This document shows, piece by piece, positions 1 through 6,654 of a DNA stretch of 6,654 nt (positions within the stretch are counted from its first letter, which is position 1; the number at the start of each line of letters is the position of its first letter). The notes below the pieces were generated by a model, which did no database searches, was not told the origin of the DNA, and saw only the letters and a list, made by a program, of their open reading frames with translations. A program made the position numbers and the translations under genes. The stretch comes from a virus. Lineage: Duplodnaviria; Heunggongvirae; Uroviricota; Caudoviricetes. The stretch is taken from IMG/VR virus record IMGVR_UViG_2585427741_000004, positions 1 through 6,654 of that record; one strand, given 5' to 3'.

Positions 1-603
1 GCTTATTACAACATAAGGCAGGAGTTTAATTACTCAACTGAAATTACTGATTTCATGAAAGCGGTATATTTCCTGTATCTCAATCGTCACGGTTACCGTG
101 GTTTATGTCGCTATAACAAGAGCGGGCATTTCAACATTCCCTACGGTAATTATAAAAATCCGTATTTCCCTGAAAAAGAAATTCGCGCATTTGCAGAAAA
201 GGCCCAGCGAGCAACGTTTATCTGCGCCAGCTTTGATGAAACGCTGGCGATGTTGAAGGCGGGGGATGTGGTGTATTGCGATCCGCCGTATGACGGCACG
301 TTTTCCGGTTATCACACTGACGGCTTCACTGAAGATGACCAGTATCACCTGGCATCCGTTCTTGAATATCGATCATCAGAAGGTCATCCGGTCATTGTTT
401 CTAACAGTGACACATCCCTGATCCGTTCGCTGTATCGCAATTTCACTCACCACTACATCAAGGCAAAACGCAGCATCGGCGTGTCAGCTGGCGAGAGTAA
501 ATCTGCAACAGAAATCATTGCTGTTTCCGGGTCGCGCTGCTGGATGGGATTTGATCCTTCGCGTGGCGTGGATAGTTCTGCTGTGTACGAGGTGCGTGTA
601 TGA
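1..603 (+). CDS. dam: DNA adenine methyltransferase (Dam family, GATC N6-adenine MTase), 5'-truncated by the window edge
   Basis: Frame 1 is open from base 1 (no stop before the first Met at 55), so the gene starts upstream of the window. The translation closely parallels E. coli Dam as I recall it: [16 protein letters not shown]...FNIPYG.YK.PYFPEKE...FAEKAQ, then the catalytic motif IV DPPY (nt 277-288), then the HTDGFT and VIVSNSDT blocks. Stop TGA at 601-603. Confidence 0.88.
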
Positions 604-3014
604 GTCATGACGATATGAGCAACTCTAGCGGCTTTAACGAGGCTGCCGCAGCATTTTCATGGAACGGCCCGAAAAAGGCCATTAACCCTTATCTGGATCC
701 GGCGGAAGTTGCGCCGGAGTCTGCACTTTCAAACCTGATCACTCTGTACGCTGCCGATAACGAGCAGGAACAACTGCGCCGCGAGGCACTGAGTGAGCAG
801 GTCTGGGAGCGTTATTTCTTTAATGAATCCCGTGATCCTGTCCAGCGCGAAATGGAGCAGGATAAGCTCATTAGCCGGGCAAAGCTGGCGCATGAGCAGC
901 AGCGTTTTAACCCGGACATGGTCATTCTGGCAGATGTCAGCGCCCAGCCTTCTCATATCAGCAAGCCGCTGATGCAACGTATCGAATACTTCAGCAGCCT
1001 GGGCAGGCCAAAGGCTTATTCCCGCTATTTGCGTGAGACGATTAAGCCATGTCTGGAGCGACTGGATTGTGTACGTGACAGTCAGCTATCTGTTTCTTTC
1101 CGTTTTATGGCAAGCCATCAAGGGCTGGAGGGGCTGCTGATCCTGCCTGAAATGAGCCAGGATCAGGTGAAACGCCTGTCCACCCTGGTAGCAGCGCATA
1201 TGAGCATGTGTCTTGAGGCCGCTTGTGGTGATTTGTACGCCACCGATGACGTTAAGCCAGAAGAAATCCGCAAGACATGGGAAAAGGTGGCTGCGGAAAC
1301 CCTGCGTCTGGATGTTATCCCGCCTGCGTTTGAGAAACTTCGTCGGAAAAGAAACCGCCGCAAACCTGTGCCCTATGAACTCATACCGGGTTCGCTGGCA
1401 CGTATGCTTTGCGCCGACTGGTGGTATCGAAAATTGTGGAAGATGCGTTGCGAATGGCGGGAAGAGCAGTTGCGTGCTGTCTGTCTGGTCAGCAAAAAAG
1501 CATCTCCCTATGTCAGCTATGAAGCAGTGACGCATAAACGTGAGCAGCGCCGCAAGTCGCTGGAGTTTTTCCGTTCTCATGAACTGGTGAACGAAGACGG
1601 AGACACGCTGGATATGGAAGATGTGGTAAACGCCAGCAGCAGCAACCCGGCACATCGCCGCAATGAGATGATGGCCTGCGTTAAAGGTCTGGAGCTTATC
1701 GCGGAAATGCGCGGTGACTGCGCCGTTTTCTACACCATCACCTGTCCGTCACGTTTCCATTCCACGCTCAATAACGGCAGACCAAACCCGACCTGGACAA
1801 ATGCGACGGTAAGACAAAGCAGTGATTATCTGGTCGGCATGTTTGCTGCATTTCGTAAGGCGATGCACAAAGCCGGATTGCGGTGGTATGGCGTGCGGGT
1901 GGCTGAGCCGCATCATGACGGTACTGTGCACTGGCATCTCATGTGCTTCATGCGTAAAAAAGACCGCCGCGCCATCACTGCATTACTGCGTAAGTTTGCC
2001 ATCCGTGAAGACCGCGAGGAACTGGGCAATAACACGGGGCCACGCTTTAAGTCTGAGCTGATTAACCCGCGCAAAGGAACGCCGACAAGCTACATCGCGA
2101 AATACATCAGTAAGAACATTGACGGGCGTGGTCTGGCTGGCGAGATCAGCAAGGAAACGGGTAAATCTCTGCGTGATAACGCTGAATACGTTAATGCCTG
2201 GGCGTCTCTGCATCGTGTTCAGCAATTCCGCTTCTTTGGCATTCCGGGGCGTCAGGCTTACCGTGAACTGCGATTGCTGGCTGGTCAGGCGGCAAGGCAA
2301 CAGGGTGACAAAAAAGCAGGTGCACCGGTACTGGATAACCCGCGCCTTGATGCCATTCTGGCTGCAGCTGATGCTGGTTGTTTTGCCACCTACATCATGA
2401 AGCAGGGCGGCGTACTGGTTCCCCGTAAATATCACCTCATCAGAACCGCTTATGAAATCAACGAAGAGCCGACCGCCTATGGCGATCACGGCATTCGTAT
2501 TTATGGCATCTGGTCACCCATTGCAGAGGGTAAGATCTGCACTCATGCAGTGAAGTGGAAAATGGTTCGTAAGGCCGTTGACGTTCAGGAGGCGGCAGCC
2601 GACCAGGGCGCTTGCGCCCCTTGGACTCGTGGCAATAACTGTCCCCTTGCTGAAAATTTGAACCAACAGGAGAAAGATAAATCAGCTGATGGGGACACCA
2701 GAACGGATATTACCCGCATGGATGACAGGGAGTTGCACGATTACCTGCACAGTATGAACAAAAAAGAGCGCCGGGAACTGGCTGCAAGGTTACGTCTGGT
2801 GAAACCGAAACGGCGTAGAGACTACAAACAGCGAATTACAGACCATCAACGACAGCAGCTCGTCTATGAACTGAAGTCCAGAGGATTTGATGGCAGCGAG
2901 AAAGAGGTCGATTTACTCCTTCGCGGCGGCAGTATTCCATCAGGAGCAGGCTTGCGTATCTTCTATCGGAACCAGCGTCTGAAGGAAGATGATAAGTGGC
3001 GGAACCTGTATTAA
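600..3014 (+). CDS. A: Phage replication initiation endonuclease, P2 gpA-like (HUH rolling-circle initiator), 804 aa
   Basis: 2415-nt ORF. The ATG at 600 overlaps the dam stop (ATGA at 600-603) and has a GAGG Shine-Dalgarno at 589-592 with a 7-nt spacer. The translation carries an HUH-type metal-binding motif, VHWHLMCFM (HWH at nt 1929-1937, residues 444-446), and a paired-tyrosine motif, [12 protein letters not shown] (Tyr at nt 2091-2093 and 2103-2105, residues 498 and 502, Y-x-x-x-Y). These are the hallmarks of phiX174 gpA / P2 gpA superfamily nicking initiators. Size and position match P2/186 gene A. The start could alternatively be the Met at 615. Confidence 0.85.
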
Positions 3015-3166: not shown

Positions 3167-3355
3167 ATGCAGGACTATTTTTTGGAGTCTTTGAAGCTCC
3201 AGCGCATTGATTTTTTTCTTAAGCTTGTAGCGGCTAGTGAGTGTAGTGATGAAGAGAAGGGGCTGGCTCTGCAGTGGGTTTCTGAATTAACTGATGAACT
3301 CATGGCAAAAATCAGAACCCATGAATACAACCGCTCAATGGATGTCATCAGTTGA
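3167..3355 (+). CDS. Hypothetical small protein (62 aa), first gene of the SOS-controlled cassette
   Basis: ATG at 3167 is preceded by a strong Shine-Dalgarno AGGAGG at 3157-3162 (4-nt spacer). It sits immediately downstream of the LexA box and promoter and is followed 11 nt later by the DinI-like gene. The translation is acidic (SDEEKG, SELTDELMAK) and I recognise no family motif. Confidence 0.55.
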   Translation: MQDYFLESLKLQRIDFFLKLVAASECSDEEKGLALQWVSELTDELMAKIRTHEYNRSMDVIS

Positions 3356-3366
3356 GGTGACTTTTT

Positions 3367-3600
3367 ATGCGCATTGAAATAATGATCGATAAAGAGCAGA
3401 AGATTAGCCAGTCTACCCTGGACGCCCTTGAATACGAGCTTTACCGCAATCTGCGCCCCCTATATCCAAAAACGGTAATTCGCATCCGCAAAGGTAGCTC
3501 TAACGGTGTGGAACTGACCGGACTGCAACTGGACGAAGAAAGGAAGCAAGTGATGAAAATTATGCAGAAAGTGTGGGAAGACGACAGCTGGCTGCATTAA
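3367..3600 (+). CDS. dinI: DinI-family protein (DNA-damage-inducible protein I-like), 77 aa
   Basis: The translation MRIEIMIDKEQ...LDALEYELYRNL...YP...VIRIRKGS...ELTGLQLDEERKQVMKIMQKVWEDDSWLH aligns along its whole length with E. coli DinI as I recall it (MRIEVTIAKT...IDALAGELSRRI...FP...VSVRY...TKEDKQRISEILQETWESADDWFVSE). A GAGGTG Shine-Dalgarno lies about 8 nt upstream. A LexA box upstream is what a DinI-family gene is expected to have. Confidence 0.82.
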   Translation: MRIEIMIDKEQKISQSTLDALEYELYRNLRPLYPKTVIRIRKGSSNGVELTGLQLDEERKQVMKIMQKVWEDDSWLH

Positions 3601-3734
3601 GAAACGTTGCTGGCGTCTGAACTTGCTTCTGGCGTCAGCAAGGTTGAACAACGAGCTGTGCGAGGCGTTAGCTCTGTGGTGCATGTCTATACCGCATGAG
3701 ATCGCATGATCGTTTGAGGATCGTTTTTGCTCAG

Positions 3735-3758
3735 GCCCGCCAGAACTGGCGGGCTTTT
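3735..3758 (+). terminator. Rho-independent terminator closing the orf62-dinI cassette
   Basis: A perfect 9-bp GC-rich stem, GCCCGCCAG (3735-3743) and CTGGCGGGC (3746-3754), with a 2-nt AA loop, followed directly by TTTT (3755-3758). Confidence 0.75.
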
Positions 3759-3803
3759 GCGTAGATCATGCAGGTGCATGAAAACCACTACATAAAGCGG
3801 GCA

Positions 3804-3822
3804 GGCGTGGCGGGGATACGAG
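3804..3822. other. Candidate cos (cohesive end) site of a P2/186-like phage
   Basis: GGCGTGGCGGGGATACGAG is a 19-nt GC-rich motif in the non-coding gap between convergent terminators, exactly where P2-family phages place cos (between the right-end accessory genes and Q). From memory the P2 cohesive end is GGCGAGGCGGGGAAAGCAC and the 186 end begins GGCGTGGCGGGGA. The first 13 nt here match that pattern. The comparison relies on recalled sequences and was not computed. Confidence 0.5.
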
Positions 3823-3910
3823 CGCGCGCAACGGGGTAAAATGGCCAAAATCCGGCACAGCCTCTGGCCCGCTGGCGGCCTCATTTAGTGGAGGGGGGGA
3901 GATGTCAGGG

Positions 3911-3947
3911 CAAAAAGAAACGCCCCGCAGAATGCTGCTGAGGCGTT
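3911..3947 (-). terminator. Putative rho-independent terminator downstream of the portal gene (- strand)
   Basis: On the - strand, a hairpin with AACGCC / GGCGTT outer arms (+ coordinates 3919-3947, with an inner GCAG/CTGC stem) is followed by a T-rich run TCTTTTT (the + strand A-run at 3911-3918). It lies about 36 nt past the Q stop codon. The stem is imperfect. Confidence 0.45.
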
Positions 3948-3982
3948 GTGAGAGTTGGTCGGTTATTGATGTTATGAGTATG

Positions 3983-5023
3983 TCAGCTTCGTTTGCCCTT
4001 AAGTCCTAAGTCATAGGCTTCAAAACGGATAACCTCTTCATCCAGCCAGTCATTCAGCTCCTGCAGTCGCTTTTGCAGGGGCATCAGTTCATTGCGGACG
4101 AAGACACGGCTCGCTTTTTCCACATCCCCAAAGCCGCCAGTGTTGTTGGGAATGATGCCCATCATTTGCGGCGGTACGCGGTGAGCCGCCATCATGTCAT
4201 CGCGGCTGACGTTCTTGATGTTCAGAAATTCATCCTTCGCCGCGACTTCCGACAACGGGATAATCTGAATGCCATCTTTTTTGCCGTTAGGCGAGTACAT
4301 AAACAGGTTGCGGAAGTTGCCCGGTCCTTTAGCACTTTTCATTGCCTTGCGGATGTTGTTCACATCCTCCTGGTTCTGTGCGGCGTCGGTCATGTACATG
4401 ATGAAGCCTGCGTGGCTGCCGTTAATGTAATACTTGCGGCGGAACAGCGTGGCGGATTCGTTGAGCAGAGCTGACGGAATGGCAGAAAGGTAACCCGGCA
4501 GACCATAAATCTCCTGGTTGATATCCGGCTCCATCAGGTGGAAGACGTTACCTTTTGTGAACTGATACGGCTGTGTCGTCAGGCTGTATTGCACAAACCA
4601 GTATGTTTCAAGGTCAAGCCCGCGTCGGGTGTATTTTGCCAGTGCAGGCTCCAGCGAAATAACTTCACCAAAGCGGTTCGTGCGTTTCTCCAGGTAGGCG
4701 TTACCAAAAACCAGATAGTCCTGCACAAAACGGGTAAATGCCTGCTGGCTGAGAAGGCGATGTGGAATATAGGTACTGCTGATAATGTCACGCTTAACAC
4801 TGATCGGGGAGCTGTGGTGCACGGCGGCGCGGAAGGTGCGCGCCAGTCCGTCAAAGCTGACGGGCGGCTCATACCAGCGATCCATCTGTACGCATTCCAC
4901 ATAGTCCAGCAGTTCGCGGCGGTCCAGTACAGGAATGGGATCACCAAAGCTGAAAGCCTCCGCAACGGGTTTTTTAGTTTCTTCTGCAGTTACGGTTTCG
5001 CCTGGCGCGATATGTTCTTTCAT
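3983..5023 (-). CDS. Q: Phage portal protein (P2 gpQ-like), about 346 aa
   Basis: Large - strand ORF whose size and position (immediately downstream of the large terminase gene, next to cos) match the portal gene Q of P2-family phages. The likely start is the ATG at 5023-5021 (MKEHIAPGE...). The ORF track begins one codon upstream at a TTG. The start overlaps the terminase stop (ATGA). Confidence 0.78.
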   Translation of the reverse strand: MKEHIAPGETVTAEETKKPVAEAFSFGDPIPVLDRRELLDYVECVQMDRWYEPPVSFDGLARTFRAAVHHSSPISVKRDIISSTYIPHRLLSQQAFTRFVQDYLVFGNAYLEKRTNRFGEVISLEPALAKYTRRGLDLETYWFVQYSLTTQPYQFTKGNVFHLMEPDINQEIYGLPGYLSAIPSALLNESATLFRRKYYINGSHAGFIMYMTDAAQNQEDVNNIRKAMKSAKGPGNFRNLFMYSPNGKKDGIQIIPLSEVAAKDEFLNIKNVSRDDMMAAHRVPPQMMGIIPNNTGGFGDVEKASRVFVRNELMPLQKRLQELNDWLDEEVIRFEAYDLGLKGKRS

Positions 5024-6654
5024 CAAAAAATCTCCACAATATTGCTGGTATTGGCGGACTCGCCCTGCAGCGGTTCGTTAAACAGTGCGTGCATTGTTGC
5101 CCAGGCCAGATCGGCATGGCTGGCTTCTTCGCTGCGGCTGGCTTCATAGGTCGGGCGGTTGCCACTGGCAGTGGTAGCGCGACGGATTGCCATAAATGAC
5201 TGCGCAATGTCGGTGTGCCCGGCGTCAAACTCCAGACGGCGGTGGCTGATAATGTCGTAGGCCTTGAGTACCAGGGCGTTTTTAACGTTGGGGTTGTAGA
5301 CAAACTCCCTGACGGCAGGAAAAAACGCTTTCACGTTCTCGTAAACCCCGTGACCGACGCCGGTCGAGTCGATGCCGATATAGGTCACGTTGTACTGTTC
5401 GGTCAGTTTTTTGATGGCGTCAGCCTGGGCGCGGAAGTCCATTCCGCGCCACTGGTGACGCTCAAGAATGCGGAACTTACCGCCCGGCACGGCTGGCGGC
5501 GCCACCACCACGCATCCGGCGCTGTCGCCGTTCTGCGTACCTTTCGCCGGGTCATAACCGATCCACACTTCGCGCCAGCCAAACGGGCGCAGGGCCAGTG
5601 CATGAAAGTCGGTCCAGACTTCCCAACTGTCCACCATGCACGCCTGCAGCTCGCTGAGTGGGAACACAGACGCGAGATCGTCCACGAACTCACACATCAG
5701 CAGGTTCTGGTATTCGTCCGGGCTGTACTCCATGCGCAACTGGTCGAGGTCGAACAGGTTACAGCCGCCGCGCACCGCATCTTCCACAGTGACTATCTGG
5801 CGGTACTGCCCGTCTGCGCACAGCAGGCCGGGGGCCAGATTGCTGTGGGACCGGTCGATGTCCACCTTATCGGCTTTGTTGCGCCCTCGGTTGAACAGCG
5901 CACCGGACCAGAACGGATAAGCACTGTGTGTCAGGCTGGATGGCGTGGAAAAATAGGTTTGTCGCCATTTTTTGTGAATAGCCATACCGGAAGCCACTTT
6001 GCGCAGCTCCTGGAATTTCGGTATCCAGAAATATTCATCCAGATACAGGTTGCCGTGGTAACTCTGGGCCGTGCGGGCATTGGTGCCGAGGAAGTACAGC
6101 GTGGCCCCGTTAGGAAGCACCATCGGATCGCCTTTCAGCTCCACCTCCACTTCTTTGGCGAAGTCGATGATGTACTGCTTAAAGACGTGGGCCTGAGCCT
6201 TGCTGGCGGAAAGGAAAATCTGGTTACGCCCGGTTAGCAGGGCGTCAATCAGGGCTTCACGGGCAAAATAGAAGGTCGCACCGATCTGGCGTGACTTCAG
6301 CAGGTTGCGGATGCGGTTGGTTTTTCCGGCTTCCCACCAGTGGCGCTGGTAGTTGAACATGGAGGAATGGAAGATTTCTTCCAGCTTCTCAATCTGTTCA
6401 TCGGTGAAAACGTTCTTTTCCGGCTGACGACGCGGGCCTTTGTTGCGGTTGGCGACGTTAGGGTTTAAGTCGGCTTCGTTGCCGCCATTGTTAAACTTGC
6501 CGATCCGCGCATGGCGCTCCGACTGGCGCGCCAGCAGGTCAATCTCTTTGAAATCTTTCCCTTCTTTGTGCTCCTTCATAATGAGCTGGCAGTAGCGTGC
6601 GGCGGTGGTGAGCTGCATCTGATCCAGCGGCCCATAGTCACCCCACTTGTCGCG
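5023..6654 (-). CDS. P: Terminase large (ATPase) subunit, P2 gpP-like, N-terminus beyond the window
   Basis: The - strand frame is open from the window edge (6654) to a TGA stop at 5025-5023. The 12 codons upstream of the first in-window Met (6618) contain no stop, so the true start lies outside the window. Gene order P then Q on the same strand, with coupled stop/start, matches the P2 late operon. The assignment rests on size, synteny and overall resemblance to P2-family terminases; I did not verify a Walker motif. Confidence 0.75.
   Translation of the reverse strand, partial: RDKWGDYGPLDQMQLTTAARYCQLIMKEHKEGKDFKEIDLLARQSERHARIGKFNNGGNEADLNPNVANRNKGPRRQPEKNVFTDEQIEKLEEIFHSSMFNYQRHWWEAGKTNRIRNLLKSRQIGATFYFAREALIDALLTGRNQIFLSASKAQAHVFKQYIIDFAKEVEVELKGDPMVLPNGATLYFLGTNARTAQSYHGNLYLDEYFWIPKFQELRKVASGMAIHKKWRQTYFSTPSSLTHSAYPFWSGALFNRGRNKADKVDIDRSHSNLAPGLLCADGQYRQIVTVEDAVRGGCNLFDLDQLRMEYSPDEYQNLLMCEFVDDLASVFPLSELQACMVDSWEVWTDFHALALRPFGWREVWIGYDPAKGTQNGDSAGCVVVAPPAVPGGKFRILERHQWRGMDFRAQADAIKKLTEQYNVTYIGIDSTGVGHGVYENVKAFFPAVREFVYNPNVKNALVLKAYDIISHRRLEFDAGHTDIAQSFMAIRRATTASGNRPTYEASRSEEASHADLAWATMHALFNEPLQGESANTSNIVEIF

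Follow-up and report, generated by a model that had tools for sequence, protein, structure and literature searches.

A Fels-2-type cos sequence between convergent terminators of a P2-family prophage in Escherichia coli

Introduction

Does the 19-nt motif between the replication and the terminase genes of this viral sequence mark the ends of the packaged genome, and if it does, is it a form of the P2-family cohesive-end site that has been seen before? The window (the whole stretch of DNA analysed here, 6,654 nt) carries GGCGTGGCGGGGATACGAG on its + strand, as read directly from the sequence. A preliminary description made from the sequence alone proposed this 19-mer as a candidate cohesive-end site. 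We compared the locus with the defined ends of P2-family phages, with viral contigs in IMG/VR, with prophages in bacterial assemblies and with published mapping of packaging termini.

Results

The 19-mer lies in the main non-coding gap of the window

GGCGTGGCGGGGATACGAG occurs once in the window, even when up to three mismatches are allowed, and had 0 matches in 200 dinucleotide-preserving shuffles of the window. Its occurrence is not expected by chance. The motif had been placed in the only extended non-coding stretch, between two convergent terminators and beside the portal and terminase genes, and all three parts of that placement hold. The 382 bp from the DinI stop to the portal stop (3601-3982) form the longest non-coding stretch of the window and contain the motif, and the portal and large terminase genes adjoin it on the - strand (Table 1).

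We assessed the flanking terminators by direct folding in place of a consensus terminator/promoter scan, and both hairpins fold as intrinsic-terminator-like structures. On the + strand, TTTT (3755-3758) follows a G+C stem at 3735-3754 (dG -22.5 kcal/mol, z -4.6). On the - strand, UUUCUUUUUG follows a stem at 3919-3947 (dG -17 kcal/mol, z -2.8). A simple terminator scan missed both, since its rules accept a hairpin only with a perfect stem or with five or more T in the tail window. A G+C-rich inverted repeat is found at the register of the + strand hairpin in 186, PSP3, SEN8, Fels-2 and P4 as well, and the P2 terminator tQ and the 186 terminator tW are annotated at the position equivalent to the - strand hairpin. 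The sole flag raised by the scan was a weak terminator-like match with a 5-bp stem inside the cos core (3785-3800, - strand), which we treated as chance. A promoter scan of the region found no promoter-like site.

Table 1 Features of the window around the cohesive-end sequence (offsets in brackets are relative to the cut).
Position	Strand	Feature	Basis or remark
55-603	+	Dam methylase gene, 3' part	
600-3014	+	Replication endonuclease gpA	
3167-3355	+	orf62 (62-aa ORF)	
3367-3600	+	DinI/Tum-like gene	
3693..3708	+	GCAT-N6-GCAT direct repeat, candidate accessory (cosB-like) site	(~-111, ~-101)
3733..3758	+	Intrinsic-terminator-like hairpin, end of the rightward gpA/orf62/DinI unit, just upstream of cos	Fold
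3769..3779	+	TGCAG-G-TGCAT tandem motif, candidate terminase contact	(-35, -29); left edge of the core
3775..3829	+	P2-family cos core, 55 bp (29 bp left of the cut, the 19-mer and CGCGCGC)	P2/P4 shared block maps here
3804..3822	+	19-nt cohesive-end sequence (cosN equivalent)	Sequence; identity to mapped HS cos; register with P2, 186 and PSP3 cosL
3830..3909	.	Variable spacer from cos core to Q terminator; P2-family cargo/defence hotspot, empty here	
3910..3947	-	Intrinsic terminator of the leftward P-Q (terminase-portal) operon	Fold; counterpart of P2 tQ / 186 tW
3983..5023	-	Portal gene (gpQ homologue)	Pfam Phage_portal; 346-aa gene in source assembly
5023..6654	-	Large terminase gene (gpP homologue)	Pfam Terminase_6N and Terminase_6C

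The gene order (gpA, orf62, DinI, terminator, cos, terminator, Q, P) is the layout of P2 and 186, and a location between the right-end gpA side and the leftward portal-terminase operon is the expected placement of a P2-family cos. The portal is 89% identical to that of the prophage in E. coli HS and 62% identical to P2 Q and 186 W. The large terminase gpP would be the nuclease/ATPase that cuts cos. Its N-terminal 45 codons are cut off by the contig end, and it is identical to the HS prophage terminase at 542/543 residues of the window-encoded part and 64% identical to P2 gpP. The small terminase gpM is encoded beyond the window and also beyond the end of a longer sister contig.

In the annotations examined, no gene is called across 3804-3822. 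A 65-aa ORF with an ATG start (3687-3884, - strand) runs across the site, and we considered it as a gene. It has no Pfam match, is uncalled in the source assemblies and is also left uncalled by PGAP/RefSeq in 98%-identical E. coli genomes or prophage, and is most likely spurious. The equivalent stretch is annotated as 'hypothetical protein' in Yersinia phage vB_YpM_MLG42 and in some Klebsiella phage records.

The site aligns in register with defined P2-family ends

In GenBank, P2, 186 and PSP3 each start at the annotated cos, which reads GGCGAGGCGGGGAAAGCAC in P2/P4 and GGCGTGGCGGGGAAAGCAT in 186/PSP3. We rebuilt the circular junctions of the relatives (right end plus left end) and set them against the window without gaps. 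The alignment is in register with the annotated cosL and cosR, the experimentally defined termini, of P2, P4, 186 and PSP3, and Fels-2 is identical. The 19-mer starts with the P2-family pattern GGCG(A/T)GGCGGGG. Its bases 1-13 are identical to those of 186 and also PSP3; the mismatches to 186 fall at positions 14, 16, 17 and 19, which gives a match of 15/19, and 14/19 bases match P2/P4. The preliminary description had noted that the 3' third differs from P2 and 186, and four of the last six bases do differ from 186. Its reading as a cos variant is sound, but the variant is already on record, being annotated in the phages SEN8 and Cartapus.

P2 and P4 share a block of 29 + 19 + 7 = 55 bp, identical at 52/55 positions, that maps to the core in Table 1. 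Passages in PMC5694545 and PMC2231350 that cite Ziermann & Calendar 1990 give a 55-bp cos core with 19-nt 5' overhangs; its boundaries were re-derived here from the P2/P4 alignment. In the cosmid literature we found no value for the minimal functional cos length. Over this core the window is matched at 55/55 positions by the HS prophage and by Fels-2, at 54/55 by SEN8, 45/55 by PSP3, 44/55 by 186, 43/55 by P4 and 42/55 by P2. The core arms kept with the P2 family are TGCATnAAAACC...AAGCGGGC on the left and yGCGCGC on the right. In-register homology runs leftward through TGCATGAAAACC...AAAGCGGGCA and rightward through CGCGCGC, and beyond 3829 the identity to every relative falls to random level (28-36/114).

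The site therefore resembles the cos of P2, P4, 186 and PSP3 in length, register and position, in having terminators on both sides and in adjoining Q and P. It differs from them at bases 14-20, which are AAGCA(C/T)|T there and TACGAG|C in the window, and the P2 terminase and portal are only 62-64% identical to those of the window. The inferred nick contexts show partial two-fold symmetry (3797-3829): the top strand reads GCGGGCA^GGCG and the bottom strand GCGCGCG^CTCG, and the corresponding P2 nick sites, GCGGGCG^ and GCGCGCA^, keep the pattern. Such symmetry would suit a symmetric nicking enzyme. The cos of lambda (cosN, cosB and cosQ) is likewise a partly symmetric site at which terminase makes staggered nicks to leave 5' cohesive ends, with accessory sites on one side. 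It works alike, but it has no sequence homology to the site described here and a 12-nt overhang instead of 19 nt, and is not a member of the family.

Conservation ends abruptly on the right and includes spaced repeats on the left

The footprint of conservation was drawn from 119 distinct viral-contig cos regions among the matches listed in IMG/VR. Positions -29 to -10, which were not forced by the search pattern, are strongly conserved across these 119 regions, and conservation stops abruptly at +26. In the same set, in-register TGCA motifs are found at -124, -111, -101, -35 and -29. Among the regions listed, TGCA is present at -35 in 92/119 and at -29 in 114/119, and this pair is also in register in 186, PSP3 and P4. 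The repeat at -111 and -101 is found in 74/119 and 52/119 of the viral-contig regions listed.

The GCAT-N6-GCAT pair is in register in 8/8 aligned phages though its surroundings are near random. P4, which shares only cos with P2, carries the pair as GTGCATGGCTTTGCATG at -113 to -97. Because the repeats are conserved in register within near-random sequence and are present in P4, we propose them as accessory sites for the small terminase; by inference from the sequences, the small subunit may bind there. The GCAT/TGCAT motifs lie about one helical turn apart and in register across P2, 186, PSP3, SEN5, SEN8, Fels-2, HS and P4. We found no statement on these motifs in the literature searched.

The exact variant has been annotated and mapped before

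The exact 19-mer followed by CGCGCGC is the Fels-2-type cos variant (...ATACGAG|CGCGCGC). Prophage Fels-2 has the same 19-mer and flanks, and a 66-bp block is identical in Fels-2 and the E. coli HS prophage. The record of Salmonella phage SEN8, which was isolated as particles, begins with the 19-mer and annotates it as 'putative cos site'; the SEN8 genome announcement names it as cos on annotation alone. Bases 1-59 of Escherichia phage Cartapus contain the 19-mer and are annotated as 'putative cos site, homologous to the cos of P2 phage'. Both annotations, in SEN8 and in Cartapus, are homology-based and not experimental. Fels-2, SEN8, SopEPhi and Cartapus (Felsduovirus/Elveevirus, Peduoviridae) all share the 19-mer and the CGCGCGC right flank with the window but have other hosts and other cargo genes between cos and Q.

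Experimental mapping exists for E. coli HS. Among the termini determined after mitomycin C induction, the cos of HS 'phage 1' is this 19-mer, by start-site analysis and PhageTerm (Zünd et al. 2021, Microbiome 9:77, PMC8008629, Table S4); the mapping is a supplementary-table entry from read-start pile-ups, not run-off sequencing. We confirmed the 19-mer at the published HS coordinates (926016-926034 of NC_009800), and the HS prophage and the window are identical at 66/66 positions from -40 to +26 around the site. HS phage 1 has the same order of dam, gpA, orf62, DinI, cos, Q and P. It differs by two additional ORFs, one of 225 aa before cos and one of 463 aa between cos and Q; both slots are empty in the window.

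The preliminary description had called for the packaging ends to be mapped, for instance from read-start pile-ups. For the identical 19-mer in the induced HS prophage that result is positive (PMC8008629, Table S4). Since the site is identical and the terminase nearly so, the HS mapping in effect already supplies the read-start experiment for this site and for practically this enzyme. The cos variant in the window is already known and has been mapped in a near-identical prophage.

Two cos classes follow two portal lineages

We scanned IMG/VR with the conserved arms fixed and the variable third left free, which gave a non-random sample of at least 120 contigs. The counts in this sample show that the window variant is common and do not give its true frequency; among the matches listed, the 19-mer of the window was the commonest form (30/120 contigs), followed by the P2 form (27), ATAGCAT (17), CTACGAG (12) and the 186 form (10). 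Of the contigs with the window 19-mer, 28/30 have it beside P2-type Q or A genes. At least 19 different P2-family 19-mer variants were seen, with two main classes of 3' third, ...AGCAY|T and ...ACGAG|C.

Among the matches listed, portals beside ...ACGAG|C sites are 74-100% identical to the window Q and those beside ...AGCAY|T sites are 53-69% identical to it. The window cos is thus linked to a portal and terminase of the Fels-2 lineage rather than of the P2/186 lineage. That the cos class tracks the portal lineage could reflect co-adaptation or plain shared ancestry. Contigs with P4-like psu, sid or alpha genes, among the matches listed, carried AGAGCAT (seven), CTACGAG (three), the P2 type (two) and ATAGCAT (one). 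This distribution suggests that satellites may match the cos class of their helper.

The cargo hotspot next to cos is empty

The homology to every relative breaks right after CGCGCGC (3829), and in the window only 160 bp separate the end of the 19-mer from the Q stop. Across 20 contigs with the same cos among the matches listed, the distance from cos to Q is between 155 and 3384 bp, and in just three of them is it as short as here. The cargo of the relatives in this interval (0.5-3.4 kb) includes AIPR/Abi, reverse transcriptase, HNH endonuclease, DUF4145 and large hypothetical proteins. A hotspot next to cos has been described in P2 (Rousset et al. 2022, PMC9122126), and a citing paper attributes the same hotspot to Dodd & Egan 1996. 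With the hotspot empty, the window offers a clean reference junction. An extra gene of about 225-243 aa lies between DinI and the upstream terminator in HS (L008 3666-4343) and Fels-2 (L004 2206-2937). The window lacks it, which points to another small variable slot, to the left of cos.

The window belongs to an integrated prophage

The window is the whole of contig JOQG01000070.1 from the E. coli draft assembly GCA_000713975.1, and its ends lie inside the dam and terminase genes. The source strain is represented by the assemblies GCA_000713975.1 and GCA_000713945.1. The identical sequence is present in two other assemblies; in one of these it lies on a contig of 117 kb that stops in gpO. The order on this sister contig is a long host gene, a 401-aa ORF, integrase, CI-type repressor, early genes, dam, gpA, orf62, DinI, cos, Q, P and the start of O. 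On the host side, the prophage is flanked by ypjA of E. coli. In JOQF01000013.1 (1-7200), the prophage adjoins the ypjA autotransporter gene, and the integrase is separated from ypjA by the 401-aa ORF, which is free of Pfam domains.

As the prophage is integrated in the sister assembly, the cos is internal, as expected for P2-like phages. The earlier choice between a prophage with an internal cos and a phage genome represented across its ends is settled for the prophage by the sister contig and its E. coli flank, and the second option falls away. The contig breaks probably stem from assembly collapse at sequence that another P2-like prophage of the genome has in common with this one; up to four matching places are seen in some E. 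coli genomes.

Discussion

The in-register homology to defined termini and the identity to the mapped HS cos support the proposal of a cohesive-end site. We are highly confident that the locus is the cos packaging site of a Fels-2-type, P2-family (Peduoviridae) prophage integrated in the E. coli chromosome.

In the mechanism that we propose, after excision and replication the terminase (gpP together with gpM) would recognise the core of about 55 bp, probably helped by the upstream TGCAT repeats. It would then make two nicks 19 nt apart, the top strand being cut between 3803 and 3804 and the bottom strand between 3822 and 3823, and the DNA would be packaged through the portal gpQ. Nicks staggered in this way would therefore give virion DNA with 5'-protruding ends of 19 nt, the left (Q-proximal) one carrying GGCGTGGCGGGGATACGAG and the other its complement. 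After injection, the cohesive ends would re-anneal into a circular genome. The prophage of the window is predicted to be inducible and to be cut at 3804-3822. PMC2231350 states that P2 and P4 prefer closed circles as packaging substrate and lambda concatemers, and closed circles may likewise be the preferred substrate of the window prophage.

The most serious competitor, to which we give a small probability, is that the site is a true cos by descent but a silent relic, left uncut in this strain because the prophage is defective (it might, for example, lack gpM, tail genes or a switch for induction). Among the P2-like prophages of E. coli, many do not respond to SOS induction, and only 6.6 kb are visible here, with the sister contig stopping in gpO and the rest of the late region lying beyond it. 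All the visible genes are intact, however (int, CI, dam, gpA, DinI, Q, P and the start of O), the cos block and terminase are almost those of the inducible HS prophage (66/66 and 542/543), and the CI-type repressor and the DinI/Tum-like gene resemble the inducible type of 186 and Fels-2. It is less likely still, and in our view quite improbable, that the site is a cos whose nick positions or overhang length depart from 3804-3822, for instance by a shift of a few bases brought about by the divergence of the 3' third. That divergence from P2 and 186 is indeed concentrated by the bottom-strand nick (positions 14-20), and the boundary in SEN8 was set by homology, but PhageTerm and start-site analysis in HS gave exactly this 19-mer, and the partial two-fold symmetry of the nick contexts is kept at exactly these positions, as in P2.

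We give almost no credence to a block that serves as a terminator, promoter, small RNA or part of a - strand protein gene (ORF 3687-3884) in place of a packaging site. Its position between two terminators, the 65-aa ORF that spans it and the weak terminator-like match within it could be read that way. Against this, the ORF has neither a Pfam match nor a gene call in the source assemblies or the 98%-identical E. coli genomes, the conservation is ungapped at the nucleotide level and breaks off abruptly at +26, precisely as it does at the defined P2/P4 termini, and the satellite P4 has the block too, without homologous genes. A search of Rfam at a permissive threshold returned only two matches at E ~0.9 (a snoRNA and a Firmicutes leader), far under the gathering scores, and we rejected a structured-RNA reading on these noise-level matches.

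As a packaging site, the locus fixes where the genomes of a common family of P2-like prophages (E. coli, Salmonella and Klebsiella) physically end and how they are oriented. Its value is mainly one of annotation, and it marks the boundary of a well-known defence-gene hotspot; for the packaging mechanism it brings nothing new. A more tentative idea, which we hold to be possible but doubtful, is that the difference in the 3' third (TACGAG|C against AAGCAY|T, by the bottom-strand nick) defines a separate packaging-specificity class and that the TGCAT repeats at -111 and -101 are small-terminase (cosB-like) sites. If this were true, terminases of the Fels-2 and P2/186 lineages would not cut each other's cos, and P4-like satellites would need to have the same cos class as the helper present locally. 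The question of whether the classes can replace each other bears on the matching of P4-type satellites with their helpers and on P2/P4 cosmid delivery vectors.
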